A stretch of 64,000 nucleotides of DNA, taken from sequence record OR062947.1. One strand, given 5' to 3'. Both the position numbers and the translations under genes were made by a program. The DNA is from Escherichia phage 348Ecol098PP. How positions within the stretch are numbered: position 1 is the stretch's first letter; each line of letters starts with the position of its first letter. This document shows positions 3,564 through 41,535 of this stretch, piece after piece. The notes under the pieces were generated by a model, which saw only the letters and a program-made list of their open reading frames with translations, made no database searches and was not told the DNA's origin.

Positions 3564-4381
3564 ATGTAGTATATAAACTATCATTTATTAATAGAATTAA
3601 TGCTAAAACCCCACCATATTATTACATTGGAAGTAAAACCAATTGCACTTTTGATGGAACGAATATTATTGATAAAAATGGTAAATTTTATTATTCGTCT
3701 TCGTCATCTTCCGAATTTCAAAAAGCCTTATTGAAAGAAACGCCGAAAGTTGAAATATTATATTTTCAATTAGTCGGAGATGAACAAATAACTAGCATTG
3801 AAGCTGAATTTCAAAAGAATATAGAAAAAGATGTATGGAATAAAGAGTATTTTAATTTAGCATATGCTGATGGCAAATTTACGACATATGGTATTTCTCC
3901 TTCTAAAGAAACTAGAGAAAAACAATCAATAACCATGATTAAAAGAAATCGTAATAAAGGCAAAAATCATGGATTTTATGGAAAGCATCATACTAATTTA
4001 GCCAGAAAGAAAATATCAGAAGCTTCTAAAAAATACTGGAAAGAAAATCCGCATCGTGGATTTTCGCATACAAAGGAAGCTAAAATTAAAATTGGAATTT
4101 CATCTTCTATCAGGCATAAAGGAAGTGGAAATCCGATGTATGGTGTAAAACCTTGGAAAACTCCGAACGCAATTAAATCTGGTACTTGTATATTATGGTT
4201 AAAATACGCAGAAATTTTATATGATTATTTAGGTCCAGATTTTAAAAGTAAATCATCTATTTTTGCGGATTTAAACTTACCGAAATTTAGAATTGATAAT
4301 TTCATCAAAAGGTTTAAAATGGGTTGGAACCCATATTTAGACGAAGAATTTCAAAAGGATAAATTAGAATTATGTCTTTAG
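3560..4381 (+). CDS. freestanding homing endonuclease-like protein (GIY-YIG-like N-terminus, NUMOD-like repeats)
   Basis: VYKLSF...YYIGSKTN near N-terminus; repeated GKNHGFYGKHHT / GSGNPMYGVKPW modules; sits between 49 and nrdD. Confidence 0.6.
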   Translation: MNVVYKLSFINRINAKTPPYYYIGSKTNCTFDGTNIIDKNGKFYYSSSSSSEFQKALLKETPKVEILYFQLVGDEQITSIEAEFQKNIEKDVWNKEYFNLAYADGKFTTYGISPSKETREKQSITMIKRNRNKGKNHGFYGKHHTNLARKKISEASKKYWKENPHRGFSHTKEAKIKIGISSSIRHKGSGNPMYGVKPWKTPNAIKSGTCILWLKYAEILYDYLGPDFKSKSSIFADLNLPKFRIDNFIKRFKMGWNPYLDEEFQKDKLELCL

Positions 4382-6988: not shown

Positions 6989-7306
6989 ATGATTAGTTTT
7001 GAGCGGTATGTGGTAGAGAGTTGGAAAGGTTTTGATATGTTCGGTAATGACTATTATTTCTATGAATGTAGTCTAAATCCTAGTTTTTGGGCTGGACGTG
7101 AACGAGATTTCGAAGAAATTAATGCTCGTGCCGAATTGTTAGGTGAACTGCCTACGGTTTATTTTACCTTTGATGAATCTGGATTTGTTATCCAGGTTTA
7201 TTTTCCTGAAGAAAACTCCGGTGAGGATTCTGTTAATCCTCCTTATTGGGCTTACCAAGGAATTATTTCTCGTGGAACAAAACTCGAACTTAAAGAACAA
7301 GATTGA
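6989..7306 (+). CDS. hypothetical protein
   Basis: ORF track; RBS AAAAGG upstream. Confidence 0.55.
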   Translation: MISFERYVVESWKGFDMFGNDYYFYECSLNPSFWAGRERDFEEINARAELLGELPTVYFTFDESGFVIQVYFPEENSGEDSVNPPYWAYQGIISRGTKLELKEQD

Positions 7307-7595
7307 AATTTATGGCATCCCTGAAGAAGTAGGACGTTGTCCGGGATGTTATACTGTTACAAAACTTTTAAAGGAGCTCAATGCTCCTTATACATTTTAT
7401 AAAGTCCTCACTAATAATGGTAAGATTGAATATGACCGTCCTTTAATCGTATCTCTTGCTAAACGTGCAGGATTCACTTCACTTAATATTCGTTATCCTG
7501 TCATATTTTTAAATGATAAGAAACAAAAGAATATTGCAGAGTTTAAAAAGTCCTTGATTTCATTAGGATATGACTCTGATATCATAGAAGATTGA
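7272..7595 (+). CDS. nrdH: glutaredoxin-like protein (CPGC active site); start codon uncertain, no in-frame ATG (GTG 7272 proposed)
   Basis: IEIYGIPEEVGRCPGCYTVTKLL redox motif; ORF-track N-terminal extension (7143-) overlaps the upstream ORF and looks non-coding. Confidence 0.5.
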   Translation: MEQNSNLKNKIEIYGIPEEVGRCPGCYTVTKLLKELNAPYTFYKVLTNNGKIEYDRPLIVSLAKRAGFTSLNIRYPVIFLNDKKQKNIAEFKKSLISLGYDSDIIED

Positions 7596-7615
7596 CCAGG
7601 CGGCGCCTGGTCAAT
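7591..7615 (+). terminator. strong perfect hairpin (11-bp stem) after glutaredoxin gene; no T-run
   Basis: ATTGACCAGGCG-G-CGCCTGGTCAAT palindrome. Confidence 0.4.
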
Positions 7616-7704
7616 CTTCATCTCATTTCTAATATAATCCATTGGAATCTTCACTTCACTATCTCCTTGTGCCCCTCTCAAATCGAAAATATTTTCATAA
7701 AACA

Positions 7705-7732
7705 GTTTACATCCTCAATAGATGTGTTAAGA
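7705..7732 (+). promoter_or_regulatory. T4 early-type promoter (GTTTAC -35, TAAGAT -10)
   Basis: GTTTAC at 7705-7710, 16-nt spacer, TAAGAT; 30 nt upstream of ORF 7762. Confidence 0.4.
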
Positions 7733-7761
7733 TTAAACCATCTACTATAGAGGAAAATAAA

Positions 7762-8010
7762 ATGATTAGTTTAGATTCAAAGAAAGTTGTTCTAACTCTT
7801 AATGTAAATAACGAACGTCTGATATTCATTACCATTTCCGATTTGAACGTTGAAATTGCTAATGGCGTCCGTACTTATCAAACGTCTAAAACACATTGGG
7901 ACTATATCCCAATGTTGACGCTTACTCAGCGTTTAGAATCAATCGGTCTTAAAGACCTTTCAGTAAGTGAAGTGAATTTTATCAAACGCATTGTATCAAT
8001 CAACCTCTGA
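7762..8010 (+). CDS. hypothetical protein
   Basis: ATG 7762 with AGAGGAAAA RBS; in frame with ORF-track 7642..8010. Confidence 0.55.
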   Translation: MISLDSKKVVLTLNVNNERLIFITISDLNVEIANGVRTYQTSKTHWDYIPMLTLTQRLESIGLKDLSVSEVNFIKRIVSINL

Positions 8011-35304: not shown

Positions 35305-35393
35305 AATATCTCCTTAGTTACCTATTATTTATTACGCTTTATAAAATTAATGTTAGAATTAACTTCTCTTATACTGAATTGAAAGGAAAAATA

Positions 35394-35915
35394 ATGGCAC
35401 ACTTTAACGAATGTTCACAACTTATTTCTGGTGTTGATAAAGCAGAAGAAGCTTATTTTAATGCTCTGATTCACGAAGATAAAGACCCACTGCAGGTAAT
35501 GCTTGATATGCAGAAATCTTTACAGGTTCGTCTGGCAAATGACAAGCCTGAACATAACAAACATCCTGATGAATTGGCCACTGCTGGCGATGTTGTTGAT
35601 TGGCTGCGTAATCAGAAAGATTATATTGATGATGAATTCCGTGAACTGCTGACTTCACTTGGTGGTATGAGCAATGGTGAAAAAGCCGCCAGCAGTGTAT
35701 GGAAGCCGTGGAAGGCACAACATGCTGAATATCGAAATCGTCGTATCGATGAACTGTCTCCTGAAGACCAGCTTGAAATTAAATTCGAGATGATTGATAT
35801 CCTCCACTTTGTTCTGAATATGTTCCAAGGTCTGGGTCTTTCCGCTGAAGAAATCTTTAAACTTTACTACTTGAAAAACCAACACAACTTTGAACGTCAG
35901 GATAATGGTTACTGA
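35394..35915 (+). CDS. 56: dCTP pyrophosphatase gp56
   Basis: MAHFNEC...DKDPLQVMLDMQ...LEIKFE..DI.HFVLNMF.GLG..AEEIFKLYYLKN matches T4 gp56. Confidence 0.92.
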   Translation: MAHFNECSQLISGVDKAEEAYFNALIHEDKDPLQVMLDMQKSLQVRLANDKPEHNKHPDELATAGDVVDWLRNQKDYIDDEFRELLTSLGGMSNGEKAASSVWKPWKAQHAEYRNRRIDELSPEDQLEIKFEMIDILHFVLNMFQGLGLSAEEIFKLYYLKNQHNFERQDNGY

Positions 35916-35960: not shown

Positions 35961-36197
35961 ATGGGTGGTTACGTTAATATCAAAACCTTTACACGTCCGG
36001 CTGGTGAAGGTAAAGAAGTTAAAGGTATGGAAGTTTCTGTGCCGTTTGAGATTTATTCAAACGAACATCGGATTGCAGATTCTCATTACCAAATCTTTCC
36101 ATCAGAAAAGGCAGCTTATTCTACTGTAGTTTCTGATGCAGCTGACTGGAAAACTAAGAACGCTGCAATGTTTACCCCTACACCAGTAAGTGGTTAA
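35961..36197 (+). CDS. soc: small outer capsid protein Soc
   Basis: GYVNIKTF...YQ.FPSEKAAYSTV pattern as in T4 Soc; late promoter upstream; terminator downstream. Confidence 0.8.
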   Translation: MGGYVNIKTFTRPAGEGKEVKGMEVSVPFEIYSNEHRIADSHYQIFPSEKAAYSTVVSDAADWKTKNAAMFTPTPVSG

Positions 36198-37548: not shown

Positions 37549-37709
37549 AAGAGAAATTTAAAGAGAAATTCTTACTAGAAATCAAGGAAAAAGACTTTGA
37601 GACATGGTATCGAATGGTGAAAGGGTTGACATTGCTTTTTAAAGCATCGTTATTCATGTTAGAACAACCTGGCCCTGATGGACCTTTAGTAGGAAAGCTT
37701 AAAAAGTAG
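37545..37709 (+). CDS. hypothetical small protein (54 aa)
   Basis: manual translation; ATGA coupling. Confidence 0.4.
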   Translation: MKEKFKEKFLLEIKEKDFETWYRMVKGLTLLFKASLFMLEQPGPDGPLVGKLKK

Positions 37710-37737
37710 TTTACATTCCCTCCTCTCGTGTTATGAT
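37709..37737 (+). promoter_or_regulatory. early-type promoter
   Basis: GTTTAC-N17-TATGAT. Confidence 0.45.
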
Positions 37738-37764
37738 AGGCTTATCTTTAAATGGAGGTCTATC

Positions 37765-38346
37765 ATGACATGTCAATCTGAACTTCAAGAACGTGAATAC
37801 CTAACAAATCTGATTGATAGCAAATTCACCCGCCAAGAACAAAACATTCTCTGGGCTTGCACCGATTCTAAGGAAGACCCGGATTTCCACTATGAATTAG
37901 ACCATCTTGTTCGTAAGCATATGACTTCTACAGTACCAGTAGAACTCTACCGTGGTGTAACTCCAGAAGAAGTAGAACGTCTTTCCCTTCTTTCTGTTGG
38001 ATGTCATTGGTCTCCTGGACGAGTAACATCGTTCACAACTGATTTCAGTACAGCTCGTCAATTCTCTGGGAGATGGGAATATCAGACGTACACTATTCTT
38101 AGTCTCAGGAATGCTCCATTCATTTTTGATTACTACCAAAACATGGTTAACATTGTACTTGCCGGGAAGAACCCTAAGCATGTTATGGAAGAAAAGCGTG
38201 TTGACGTCCTAGATATGATTGAATCTGAACAAGAGTACATGGTCTCAGGTATCTCTAGATTTGAGATTGTGGAAATTGAAGACTTAGAATATGACCCTTT
38301 ATCTCGATTATACAAAATCATTCATTTGAAAATGTTGAATTTTTAG
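37765..38346 (+). CDS. ADP-ribosyltransferase, ModA/ModB family (paralog 1)
   Basis: R-S-E type motifs (ELYRG, TSFTTDF) and paralogy with adjacent ORF; synteny with T4 modA/modB next to dda. Confidence 0.6.
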   Translation: MTCQSELQEREYLTNLIDSKFTRQEQNILWACTDSKEDPDFHYELDHLVRKHMTSTVPVELYRGVTPEEVERLSLLSVGCHWSPGRVTSFTTDFSTARQFSGRWEYQTYTILSLRNAPFIFDYYQNMVNIVLAGKNPKHVMEEKRVDVLDMIESEQEYMVSGISRFEIVEIEDLEYDPLSRLYKIIHLKMLNF

Positions 38347-38374
38347 TGTACAAACTCTTCCGATGATGATACTA
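38345..38374 (+). promoter_or_regulatory. early-type promoter
   Basis: GTGTAC-N18-TACTAT. Confidence 0.4.
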
Positions 38375-38403
38375 TACCTTTATCAACCACAGGAGAAACC
38401 TAA

Positions 38404-39012
38404 ATGTTTATGCCGTATAACGAGTGTGAAATTGAAGAAATGGTTCGTCGTGCCCAAAACCCTGAATATCAAGATGTATTGCAGTACGAAATTGATAGTC
38501 AATTCAGCGACATTGAACAAAGCATCCTTTGGCAGTGTATGGAAAACAAGCCAGACTGTATTCAACAGGAGTTAAGTTCAATCGTTCGTAGAAATTGGAC
38601 GTCTTCTGTTCCTGAGACAATGTATCGTGGAATCTCTAAGAAAACTATGGCCACACTCGATGATAAAGGTATTGGTAGTATTATTAAATTTGACAGAGTA
38701 ATGAGCTTCAGCCCAGTGTTCGGTGTAGCACGTAACTTTGCTTCGTATAATTTTTACGGAACATTTAATATGTTCTGCATCAAAGATGCACCATTTGCTT
38801 TCAACTTCCGTGAACATATGCTTAATATGATTCTGGCTGCACCATCTTGTGAGTTCAATGGAGCTTTCCCTGAAGCGACAAGACGGTCTAATGCTAGACT
38901 TATATCTGACGAATGTGAATTTATGCTCCCTATAGGGACTACACTGCGTGTAGATTCTATTATTCAAGATGGACGTTATACAATCTGGAATCTGTCTATT
39001 GTCAGTTACTGA
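38404..39012 (+). CDS. ADP-ribosyltransferase, ModA/ModB family (paralog 2)
   Basis: ETMYRG, MSFSPVF motifs; paralog of 37765..38346. Confidence 0.6.
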   Translation: MFMPYNECEIEEMVRRAQNPEYQDVLQYEIDSQFSDIEQSILWQCMENKPDCIQQELSSIVRRNWTSSVPETMYRGISKKTMATLDDKGIGSIIKFDRVMSFSPVFGVARNFASYNFYGTFNMFCIKDAPFAFNFREHMLNMILAAPSCEFNGAFPEATRRSNARLISDECEFMLPIGTTLRVDSIIQDGRYTIWNLSIVSY

Positions 39013-39086
39013 CTGAATTGGAATAACCGGATGGAACTCAGAACCATTATAACACATAAAAAATTAAAGCATTTTATGAAAAAAGA

Positions 39087-39115
39087 GTGTACACTACCTG
39101 AGGGCATGATATTAT
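39087..39115 (+). promoter_or_regulatory. early-type promoter
   Basis: GTGTAC-N17-TATTAT. Confidence 0.4.
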
Positions 39116-39164: not shown

Positions 39165-39911
39165 ATGTTGTCAAATAATAAAATTAACAAAATCAATCGT
39201 CGTCTTGACCACACCAGAGCTTCTGCGAAGAGACGCTCTAAGGATTTTAACTTAGACTTTAATTACCTTAAAAACATTCTTGATCAAAAGGTCTGCGCTT
39301 ACTCAGGTGAATCTTTTAATAACTCTGTTGAAGGTGAGAAATTATCCTTAGAACGTTTTAATAATGATATCGGCTACATTAAAGGTAATGTTATCCCAGT
39401 TAAGAAAAAATATAACACGGCTCGTTCTGATTTAACATTAGAAGAACTTATTGAAAAACGTGATGCCATTGCAAGACGTATCGCTAATCCTTCTGCCCGT
39501 AAAGTAGAGAAACTTAATCTCGACGAGAAGAAATGGGCCCAAATTAAAAAGGTTTATGGTACTATTTTAAAAATCCGAGCAAAACGTGAAAATCGTGTTA
39601 AGCATATGGCGAACATGATGAAAAATCAACCTTTATCTAACGAATCTAAACTTAGAATTGTTGCTTTGAAAGCACGCATTAATGGCTCACATCAAGCAGA
39701 AGGCCATGAACTTACTAAACTCAACGTTCTTCTTAAAGGCTCTGACTGGAAAACTAAAACTAAATTAACTGACGCTGAATCGCTTTTCGATACATATGAT
39801 AAAGTTATCCAAGGTCTGCAACGTTTTGAAAAGATTGGTTTCATTGGTAAATTAAAATTGAAACGTGGCTTACCACTTAGCGCATCATTATTCCAACTGA
39901 TTAAAGGTTAA
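39165..39911 (+). CDS. hypothetical protein with HNH_3-like motif (LSLERFNNDIGYIKGNV); occupies T4 srd position
   Basis: ORF track; motif; synteny. Confidence 0.45.
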   Translation: MLSNNKINKINRRLDHTRASAKRRSKDFNLDFNYLKNILDQKVCAYSGESFNNSVEGEKLSLERFNNDIGYIKGNVIPVKKKYNTARSDLTLEELIEKRDAIARRIANPSARKVEKLNLDEKKWAQIKKVYGTILKIRAKRENRVKHMANMMKNQPLSNESKLRIVALKARINGSHQAEGHELTKLNVLLKGSDWKTKTKLTDAESLFDTYDKVIQGLQRFEKIGFIGKLKLKRGLPLSASLFQLIKG

Positions 39912-39913
39912 TT

Positions 39914-40225
39914 ATGGTTTATGTATATGCAATAGTTTATCGAGATATGGAAGGATTTACTGTCCCGGTTCCACTTGATGAGCATCGTCCTGCAGTATTT
40001 TTTAGAAAGGATATTGCAGATAAAGTTTTCGATACTTTGAAAACACAGTATAAAACAGATTTAAAAATGGGAGTTCTAAGAATGGTCGAAACTCCGCGTA
40101 AGTTCTGGTTTAATAAGCTTGAAATGAAACACGTTAAACTAGATGCGGAGACGCAAAGATTGTATCAACGAATCCTGGACACAGGCCGTATTGTTAGTAT
40201 TCCAATTGCAGGGACTTTACGATGA
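39914..40225 (+). CDS. hypothetical protein (dda.1 position)
   Basis: ORF track; ATGA coupling to dda. Confidence 0.6.
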   Translation: MVYVYAIVYRDMEGFTVPVPLDEHRPAVFFRKDIADKVFDTLKTQYKTDLKMGVLRMVETPRKFWFNKLEMKHVKLDAETQRLYQRILDTGRIVSIPIAGTLR

Positions 40226-41535
40226 CATTTGATGATTTGACTGAAGGCCAGAAAAACGCCTTCAACGTTGTTATGAACGCTATTAAAGAAAAGAAACATC
40301 ACGTAACTATTAATGGGCCTGCTGGTACAGGTAAAACAACCCTTACTAGATTCATCGTTGAAGCCCTTATTTCTTCTGGAGAATCAGGTATTATTTTAGC
40401 AGCCCCTACACACGCCGCTAAAAAGGTTCTAAGCAAACTTGCGGGTCAAGAAGCATCGACTATTCATAGCATTCTTAAAATCAACCCAACTACATACGAA
40501 GAAAACGTATTGTTTGAACAGAAAAAGGTTCCCGACTTAGCCTTGTGCCGTGTACTGTTATTTGACGAAGCGTCAATGTGCGACCGTTCTCTGTTTAAAA
40601 TAATGTTAGCTAGTATCCCTAAATGGTGTACAGTAATTGGAATCGGCGACCGATGCCAGATTCGTCCGGTAGACCCAGGCGAATCAACTGCGTATCTAAG
40701 TCCTTTCTTCACTCACAAAGACTTCGTGCAATGCAATCTTACAGAAGTTAAACGTAGCAATGCACCAATTATTGATGTTGCGACTGATATTCGTAATGGC
40801 AAATGGATTTACGATAAAGTAGTTGATGGACACGGTGTTCACGGATATACAGACCTTAAATCGTATATGATGAACTATTTTAACGTCGTTAAAACTCCTG
40901 AAGACCTTTTCGAAAATCGAATGATGGCATTCACAAATAAGTCGGTGGACAAGTTAAATTCAATTATTCGCCGAAAACTTCTTGAAACAGAAAAACCATT
41001 TATTAAAGACGAAGTCATTGTTCTACAAGAGCCGTTTACTAAGACATATAAGCTAGATGGTAAAAATATGACCGAAATGCTTTTCAATAACGGCCAATTC
41101 GTTCGTATTCGAGATGCTGTAGAAACGTCTACATTCGTTAAAGCACGTGGTGTTTCAGGCGAATATATGATACGATACTGGAATCTTACAGTAGAAACAT
41201 ATGGGGATGATGAAGAATACATCCGCGAAGATATAAAGGTTATTTCTTCTGAAGAAGAGCTTTATAAATTCAATTTGTTTTTGGCTAAGACCGCAGAAAC
41301 ATACAAATTTTGGAATAAAGGTGGTAAAGCTCCATGGAGCGAATTCTGGGATGCTAAACGTATGTTCACTAAGGTGAAGGCGCTACCAGTATCAACCTTC
41401 CATAAGGCCCAGGGTATGTCTGTTGACACTGCCTTTGTTTATACACCGTGTATCCATTATGCCGATTCAGAATTAGCTAAACAGTTATTGTATGTCGGCA
41501 CAACTCGCGGTCGGTTTGACGTCCATTTTATTTGA
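40222..41535 (+). CDS. dda: DNA helicase Dda (SF1)
   Basis: 437 aa; Walker A GPAGTGKTT; synteny dda-dexA. Confidence 0.92.
   Translation: MTFDDLTEGQKNAFNVVMNAIKEKKHHVTINGPAGTGKTTLTRFIVEALISSGESGIILAAPTHAAKKVLSKLAGQEASTIHSILKINPTTYEENVLFEQKKVPDLALCRVLLFDEASMCDRSLFKIMLASIPKWCTVIGIGDRCQIRPVDPGESTAYLSPFFTHKDFVQCNLTEVKRSNAPIIDVATDIRNGKWIYDKVVDGHGVHGYTDLKSYMMNYFNVVKTPEDLFENRMMAFTNKSVDKLNSIIRRKLLETEKPFIKDEVIVLQEPFTKTYKLDGKNMTEMLFNNGQFVRIRDAVETSTFVKARGVSGEYMIRYWNLTVETYGDDEEYIREDIKVISSEEELYKFNLFLAKTAETYKFWNKGGKAPWSEFWDAKRMFTKVKALPVSTFHKAQGMSVDTAFVYTPCIHYADSELAKQLLYVGTTRGRFDVHFI

Follow-up and report, generated by a model that had tools for sequence, protein, structure and literature searches.

We analysed 64,000 nucleotides (nt) of DNA from Escherichia phage 348Ecol098PP (OR062947.1), hereafter the window, and focused on two adjacent genes at positions 37765 to 39012, designated UP (upstream) and DN (downstream). 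Their products resemble the ADP-ribosyltransferases (ARTs) ModA and ModB of phage T4. T4 ModA modifies both alpha subunits of RNA polymerase at Arg265 (PMC2988021). T4 ModB is specific for arginine and ADP-ribosylates S1, EF-Tu and trigger factor; with nicotinamide adenine dinucleotide (NAD)-capped RNA as donor, it also RNAylates S1 and L2 (PMC10468400). UP and DN are most likely small single-domain, arginine-specific mono-ADP-ribosyltransferases of the R-S-E (cholera-toxin/C2-C3-like) clade. The genes and their predicted catalytic codons are located as follows:

37765..38346, plus strand: UP gene (582 nt, 193 aa), putative Mod-family arginine-specific ADP-ribosyltransferase in the modB position
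37951-37953, plus strand: UP codon for predicted catalytic residue R63
38029-38031, plus strand: UP codon for predicted catalytic residue S89
38227-38229, plus strand: UP codon for predicted catalytic residue E155
38233-38235, plus strand: UP codon for predicted catalytic residue E157
38404..39012, plus strand: DN gene (609 nt, 202 aa), putative Mod-family arginine-specific ADP-ribosyltransferase in the modA position
38626-38628, plus strand: DN codon for predicted catalytic residue R75
38704-38706, plus strand: DN codon for predicted catalytic residue S101
38911-38913, plus strand: DN codon for predicted catalytic residue E170
38917-38919, plus strand: DN codon for predicted catalytic residue E172

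Family, active-site residues and predicted fold

A sequence-only reading had proposed two adjacent, paralogous open reading frames (ORFs) of about 200 codons in this region. Both were found at exactly the coordinates it claimed and on the plus strand, with Shine-Dalgarno sequences GGAGG (37754-37758) for UP and AGGAG (38391-38395) for DN. BLASTP aligned the two products with 33% identity over 147 aa (E-value of 8e-27), and by this similarity UP and DN are true paralogs, in agreement with the proposal. All of the shared motifs that had been listed were present: NILWAC in UP and SILWQC in DN near the N-terminus, VPVELYRG and VPETMYRG around the arginine, SFT and SFS around the serine, and the acidic stretches SEQEYM and DECEFM around the glutamates. 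The spacing of the second motif had to be corrected, as the gap between VP and YRG is three residues rather than two. No third Mod-family gene emerged when the 397 ORF segments of at least 50 aa in the window were all scanned with profiles. An ORF of 159 aa lies antisense to DN (38578..39057, minus strand). We rejected it as a gene because it had no PHROG family match and is nested in the DN coding region; a shadow ORF is the most likely explanation.

In profile searches, UP and DN matched PHROG 832, "RNA polymerase ADP-ribosylase", with E-values of 5.1e-38 and 1.4e-37, respectively. These matches, together with the similarity to T4 ModB and ModA described below, bear out the ModA/ModB-like identity assigned in the sequence-only reading. 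Every cluster of homologs carried a precomputed Pfam PF26816 assignment, among them clusters with 97-98% identity to UP and to DN. Homologs occurred in ~1,000-1,080 phage records. UP was 96-100% conserved in ~136 records; in the band of 60-80% identity, to which Dhakavirus KIT01 belongs (UP distance of 0.37), its conservation was 62-64% and the motifs were kept. Proteins 100% identical to UP and DN have been deposited from phage EP32a and Shigella phage JK36, respectively. Searching the PDB by sequence with the single proteins gave only chance matches (nucleophosmin and Cas9, E-value of at least 0.016).

Conservation of the active-site residues was scored in an alignment of 48 homologs. The Arg-Gly of the YRG motif (R63 and G64 in UP, R75 and G76 in DN) and the first serine of SF(S/T) (S89 in UP, S101 in DN) were invariant, and each glutamate of the ExE pair (E155 and E157 in UP, E170 and E172 in DN) was at least 90% conserved. 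R63 of UP and R75 of DN aligned with R73 of T4 ModB, and E155-Q-E157 of UP and E170-C-E172 of DN aligned with the EQE of both T4 ModA and T4 ModB. The ExE strands of XopAI and Vis gave weak profile matches. R-S-EXE is the active-site motif of both T4 enzymes, and a T4 ModB R73A,G74A double mutant lost ADP-ribosylation as well as RNAylation, the loss of ART activity being credited to R73A by the authors (PMC10468400). The evidence for the catalytic residues in UP and DN comes from R73 of T4 ModB (PMC10468400) and from the alignment. The earlier assignment to the R-S-E class is consistent with the presence of the R-S-ExE residues in both proteins, aligned with this R73.

The AlphaFold2 models were confident, with a mean predicted local distance difference test (pLDDT) score of 89.8 for UP and 94.7 for DN. 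In these models, the arginine lies on a predicted strand (R63 in residues 60-64 of UP, R75 in residues 72-76 of DN), the Ser-x-Ser/Thr motif lies on a predicted strand followed by a helix (residues 88-91 of UP, 100-103 of DN), and the ExE motif stands at the start of a strand in both proteins, as in R-S-E ARTs. All of the top 50 Foldseek hits in the PDB were R-S-E ADP-ribosyltransferases for each model (probability of 1.00, E-value of ~1e-5); among them were iota Ia, CDTa, C3 exoenzymes, Certhrax, HopU1, XopAI, Vis and Tre1. Searched against predicted viral structures, the DN model matched phage ModA and ModB models with template modelling scores (TM-scores) of 0.85-0.86. No Mod-family structure has been solved (bioRxiv 10.1101/2025.07.11.664405). 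The models suggest that UP and DN both adopt the catalytic fold of the R-S-E clade, a split beta-sandwich. The sequence-only reading had named a missing ART fold as the result that would count against it, and the fold was present in both models.

The R-S-E toxins listed above share with UP and DN the catalytic fold and the R / S-T-S / ExE triad. However, the sequence identities were 8-18% and the TM-scores were 0.35-0.56. The Mod proteins also differ from the toxins in consisting of a minimal single domain, in their distinct N-terminal helical bundle and in lacking a partner for secretion or translocation.

Early promoter motifs and gene order

We searched the window for T4-type early promoters with the pattern GT[TG]TAC-N13-15-TGn-TAnnnT and estimated chance occurrence from Markov-1 simulations. 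GTTTAC is the T4 early −35 consensus, located at −36 to −31 (PMC1524935); G was allowed at the third −35 position because of the DN and srd sites themselves. The pattern occurred 15 times on the plus strand, between positions 1364 and 58662, and was absent from the minus strand, with 0.29 occurrences expected by chance. Nearly all of the 15 motifs were located ~15-45 nt upstream of an ATG with a Shine-Dalgarno-like sequence, and the window as a whole resembles an early region with transcription in a single direction. The motifs around the pair and the genes downstream of it are as follows:

37709-37737, plus strand: UP promoter motif of the T4-type pattern, GTTTAC-14-TGt-TATGAT, with an A-rich stretch before it
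38346-38375, plus strand: DN promoter motif, weaker, GTGTAC-15-TGa-TACTAT in the 57-bp gap between UP and DN
39087-39115, plus strand: srd promoter motif of the T4-type early pattern, marking the end of the two-gene unit
39165-39911, plus strand: srd, identified by a PHROG match
39914-40225: dda.1, between DN and dda
40222-41535: dda, 3' of dda.1

A generic sigma-70 scan called the UP site as TTTACA-16-TATGAT with an extended −10 TG at 37710-37737 (10/12 matches), and it did not call the DN motif (8/12 matches). Independent support for the DN motif came from Dhakavirus KIT01, in which a canonical GTTTAC-15-TGg-TACTAT occupies the same intergenic gap. A GTTTAC-type early promoter also precedes modB in both T4 and KIT01. 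At the sequence level, the earlier proposal that each gene has its own early promoter agrees with these motifs, the one ahead of DN being the weaker. The arrangement in T4 is different: modB has a promoter, modA overlaps modB by ATGA (4008-4011 of the T4 segment), and there is no internal promoter. In Mosigvirus and Dhakavirus, by contrast, a gap of ~55 bp with a promoter motif separates the two ART genes. UP and DN may therefore be dosed independently, as opposed to the presumably co-transcribed T4 genes.

The 4.7 kb around the pair was 98.4-98.6% identical to many Mosigvirus phages of Escherichia and Shigella, e.g., JS09, SQ17 and moskry, and 152 records covered at least 80% of this region. 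The source of the pair is an RB69/JS09-like (Mosigvirus) T-even phage. The gene order in the window is 56 - soc - mrh.2 ... modA.2 - UP - DN - srd - dda.1 - dda - dexA, and the T4 order modA.2 - modB - modA - srd - dda.1 - dda - dexA is in exact synteny with it. Among the neighbours, Mrh, ModA.2-type, Srd and Dda.1 proteins were recognized by PHROG matches. The pair had been placed in the T4 modA/modB position upstream of dda; this is right, with srd and dda.1 intervening between DN and dda.

The same genes, with the same coding sequence (CDS) boundaries and neighbours, are present in RB69 and JS09 as ModB and ModA (NP_861709 and NP_861708; YP_009037485 and YP_009037486), and they differ from the window pair only by strain-level substitutions. 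In the JS09 RefSeq record, both CDSs have the lengths found in the window and are labelled "RNA polymerase ADP-ribosylase". The notes in that record name the upstream one "ModB ADP-ribosylase" and the downstream one "ModA RNA polymerase ADP-ribosylase" by similarity to RB69 NP_861709 and NP_861708. RB69, JS09 and numerous further records carry the two genes under the names ModB and ModA, and the pair is a known feature rather than a discovery.

Two further observations concern the neighbouring genes. In the window, gene 56 (35379-35915) is directly followed by soc (35961-36197) with no seg gene between them, whereas in T4 the homing endonuclease gene segF lies between gene 56 and soc (7107-7781 of the compared T4 segment). 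The Srd homolog (39165-39911, plus strand) matched PHROG 1400, "Srd anti-sigma factor", with an E-value of 1e-99. Its N-terminal 100-150 residues also matched PHROGs for HNH endonuclease, endonuclease and endonuclease VII (E-values of 4e-18 to 8e-11), and by these profile matches Srd may contain an HNH-like domain or originate from one.

Correspondence of the two copies with T4 ModA and ModB

UP was 37.5% identical to T4 ModB (E-value of 3e-27) and 26% identical to T4 ModA (E-value of 1.5e-9). DN was 30.5% identical to T4 ModB (E-value of 4e-33, 105 bits) and 30% identical to T4 ModA over the full length (E-value of 4e-20, 71 bits). T4 ModB (NP_049636) resembles UP in its position directly after modA.2, its GTTTAC early promoter, the R-S-ExE residues and the N-terminal EQSxLWxC helix. 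However, UP has 14 fewer residues at its N-terminus and no counterpart of the acidic "YEDTDGLD" insertion that precedes the ExE helix in T4 ModB, and 57 bp with a promoter, rather than an overlap, lie between the UP stop codon and the next gene. T4 ModA (NP_049635) resembles DN in its position directly before srd and in the conserved R-S-ExE residues, and the structure predicted for DN very closely resembled that predicted for a Tequatrovirus ModA (TM-score of 0.86). DN differs from T4 ModA in having SFS instead of SAS, YRG instead of WRG, and its own promoter.

Why only ModB of the two T4 enzymes RNAylates is not understood, according to the authors of that work (PMC10468400). We dropped an attempt to predict RNAylation from electrostatics, as all ModA-like and ModB-like proteins were acidic and neither net charge nor isoelectric point separated the two groups.

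Two copies are present at this locus in Tequatrovirus, Mosigvirus and Dhakavirus, and a single copy is present at the same locus in Karamvirus, Kanagawavirus, Gelderlandvirus, Marfavirus and Krischvirus. We built neighbour-joining (NJ) trees from sets of 11 and 54 sequences and evaluated the placement of the T4 proteins with 200 bootstraps. The window UP paired with the Dhakavirus UP in 99.5-100% of bootstraps. The window DN and the Dhakavirus DN were sisters at 100% in the 11-sequence tree, and their smallest shared clade had 66% support in the 54-sequence tree. The T4 proteins were placed with weak support. A split of T4 ModA plus DN from T4 ModB plus UP was recovered in 61.5% of bootstraps, DN and T4 ModA formed a clade in 46.5%, T4 ModA and T4 ModB were together in 38%, and T4 ModB joined DN in 0.5%. 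UP was located nearer the single-copy genes of the other genera, and T4 ModA was the longest branch in the NJ trees, which probably explains why DN scored better against ModB. The positional orthology of DN with T4 ModA and of UP with T4 ModB is therefore favoured by these comparisons but weakly resolved and not established, and since the one-to-one relationship is recovered in 61.5% of bootstraps, the T4 targets cannot be safely transferred to UP and DN. By analogy with T4, the assignment of individual targets to the two copies has about an even chance of being correct.

The two copies might instead have arisen by independent duplication, or have been altered by later gene conversion, in the T4 and the Mosigvirus/Dhakavirus lineages, so that UP and DN would be active ARTs with a division of substrates different from that of T4. 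For example, neither or both of the copies might target RNA polymerase alpha, or the other copy might RNAylate. The grouping of T4 ModA with T4 ModB to the exclusion of the window and Dhakavirus copies, seen in the 38% of bootstraps mentioned above, is consistent with such a history, as are the better scores of both DN and UP against T4 ModB than against T4 ModA. The single-copy genera show that the copy number has changed in evolution, and the separate promoters in the window contrast with the overlapping genes in T4. On the other hand, the best tree and the majority of bootstraps favour positional orthology, and the identical order and flanking genes in three genera are most simply explained by one ancestral duplication. 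A higher score against ModB would also be expected if T4 ModA were just the fastest-evolving branch. On balance, we regard independent duplication or conversion as somewhat unlikely. Rather unlikely, in our estimate, is the functional outcome itself, namely that the Mosigvirus/Dhakavirus pair divides its substrates differently from T4, for example in that DN is not the alpha-Arg265 enzyme or that both copies, or the "wrong" copy, RNAylate. If this were true, the "ModA" and "ModB" labels that hundreds of genome records have taken over from T4 would be misleading as to function, and the separate early promoters would permit independent dosing of both enzymes.

Proposed role in infection and probable dispensability of UP

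UP and DN are very probably active Mod-family arginine-specific ARTs, judging from their sequences and predicted structures, and the phage most likely employs the pair at an early stage of infection for the NAD-dependent modification of host proteins. We infer this catalysis and its early timing from the genes, family, fold, residues, synteny and promoter motifs. Right after infection, unmodified host sigma-70 RNA polymerase would transcribe each gene from its own T4-type early promoter. The products would bind NAD+ via the arginine on strand 1 (R63 in UP, R75 in DN), a residue that contacts the NAD phosphate in the R-S-E clade, and the Ser-x-Ser/Thr strand (S89 in UP, S101 in DN). Activation of the ribose C1' and of the acceptor arginine would fall to the Glu-x-Glu pair (E155 and E157 in UP, E170 and E172 in DN), after which arginines of host proteins would receive the ADP-ribose, contributing to host takeover. 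A possible further donor is NAD-capped RNA. By position, and weakly by phylogeny, DN would be the counterpart of T4 ModA, which acts on Arg265 of RNA polymerase alpha, and UP that of T4 ModB, which acts on S1, EF-Tu and trigger factor and performs RNAylation.

Several observations weigh against this interpretation or parts of it. The window proteins are only 26-37% identical to the T4 enzymes, DN has the higher bit score against T4 ModB rather than T4 ModA, and the bootstrap support of 61.5% for the pairing with the T4 copies is weak as a basis for assigning targets. We found no paper characterizing an RB69-type ModA or ModB, and the statement in the sequence-only reading that the targets in this phage are open was a fair one. 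Similarity to solved toxins is moderate by TM-score, in part owing to a different N-terminal helical region. Neither UP nor DN had a match in the local Pfam-A and NCBIfam libraries, but PF26816 is absent from the local Pfam copy, so the Pfam result reflects a gap in the library version and is no evidence against family membership.

A natural variant bears on the requirement for UP. In the Mosigvirus G2285 (Escherichia phage vB_EcoM_G2285, MK327933.1, 2486-2644), a deletion of ~440 bp inside UP, corresponding to about 37783-38222 of the window, fuses codon 4 to about codon 154. Residues ~5-153, including R63 and S89, are lost, leaving a 52-aa remnant, and the DN gene is intact. That G2285 is viable without most of UP is a further point against the proposed role. 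As G2285 was recovered in viable form, growth can proceed without UP under at least some conditions, and this natural knockout suggests that UP is dispensable. The deletion fits the picture in T4: a ModB catalytic mutant is viable, its burst being lower by a factor of 4 to 12 (PMC10468400), and phage lacking modA have also been constructed and examined (PMC2988021).

These variants raise the question of whether one of the two paralogs, with UP the likelier candidate, is decaying or has no catalytic relevance and has been kept by chance. The viability of G2285 without R63 and S89 would agree with this, as would that of the impaired T4 ModB mutant and the existence of the modA deletion phage. 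However, UP in the window is intact and keeps all of its catalytic residues, it is conserved in the ~136 close records and, with its motifs, in the 60-80% identity band, and it has a strong promoter, a ribosome-binding site and a confident model. In addition, the T4 ModB catalytic mutant has the lower burst mentioned above. We therefore consider a decaying UP very unlikely. A role of UP and DN mainly as counter-defence ARTs, acting on host immune proteins or nucleic acids instead of the transcription and translation machinery, appears similarly improbable. Phage ARTs with anti-defence roles do exist, AcrIF11 being one example (PMC12421852), and the family has been described as fast-evolving and conflict-related (PMC9503650). 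Nevertheless, the mapped targets of T4 ModA and ModB, the closest characterized relatives, are RNA polymerase and translation factors, the locus lies among transcription-takeover genes (mrh, srd), and nothing in the window data points directly to counter-defence. Early modification of host proteins by two active Mod-family ARTs remains the preferred interpretation.

The pair carries little weight as a discovery: annotation of its genes, family and position dates back to the RB69 genome. The ModA and ModB names in RB69-type phages were given on the basis of position and 26-37% identity rather than biochemistry, so the targets copied from T4 are presumptive. Natural variants, including the UP-deleted Mosigvirus and the single-copy genera, could help to map the determinants of substrate choice and RNAylation in the Mod family.

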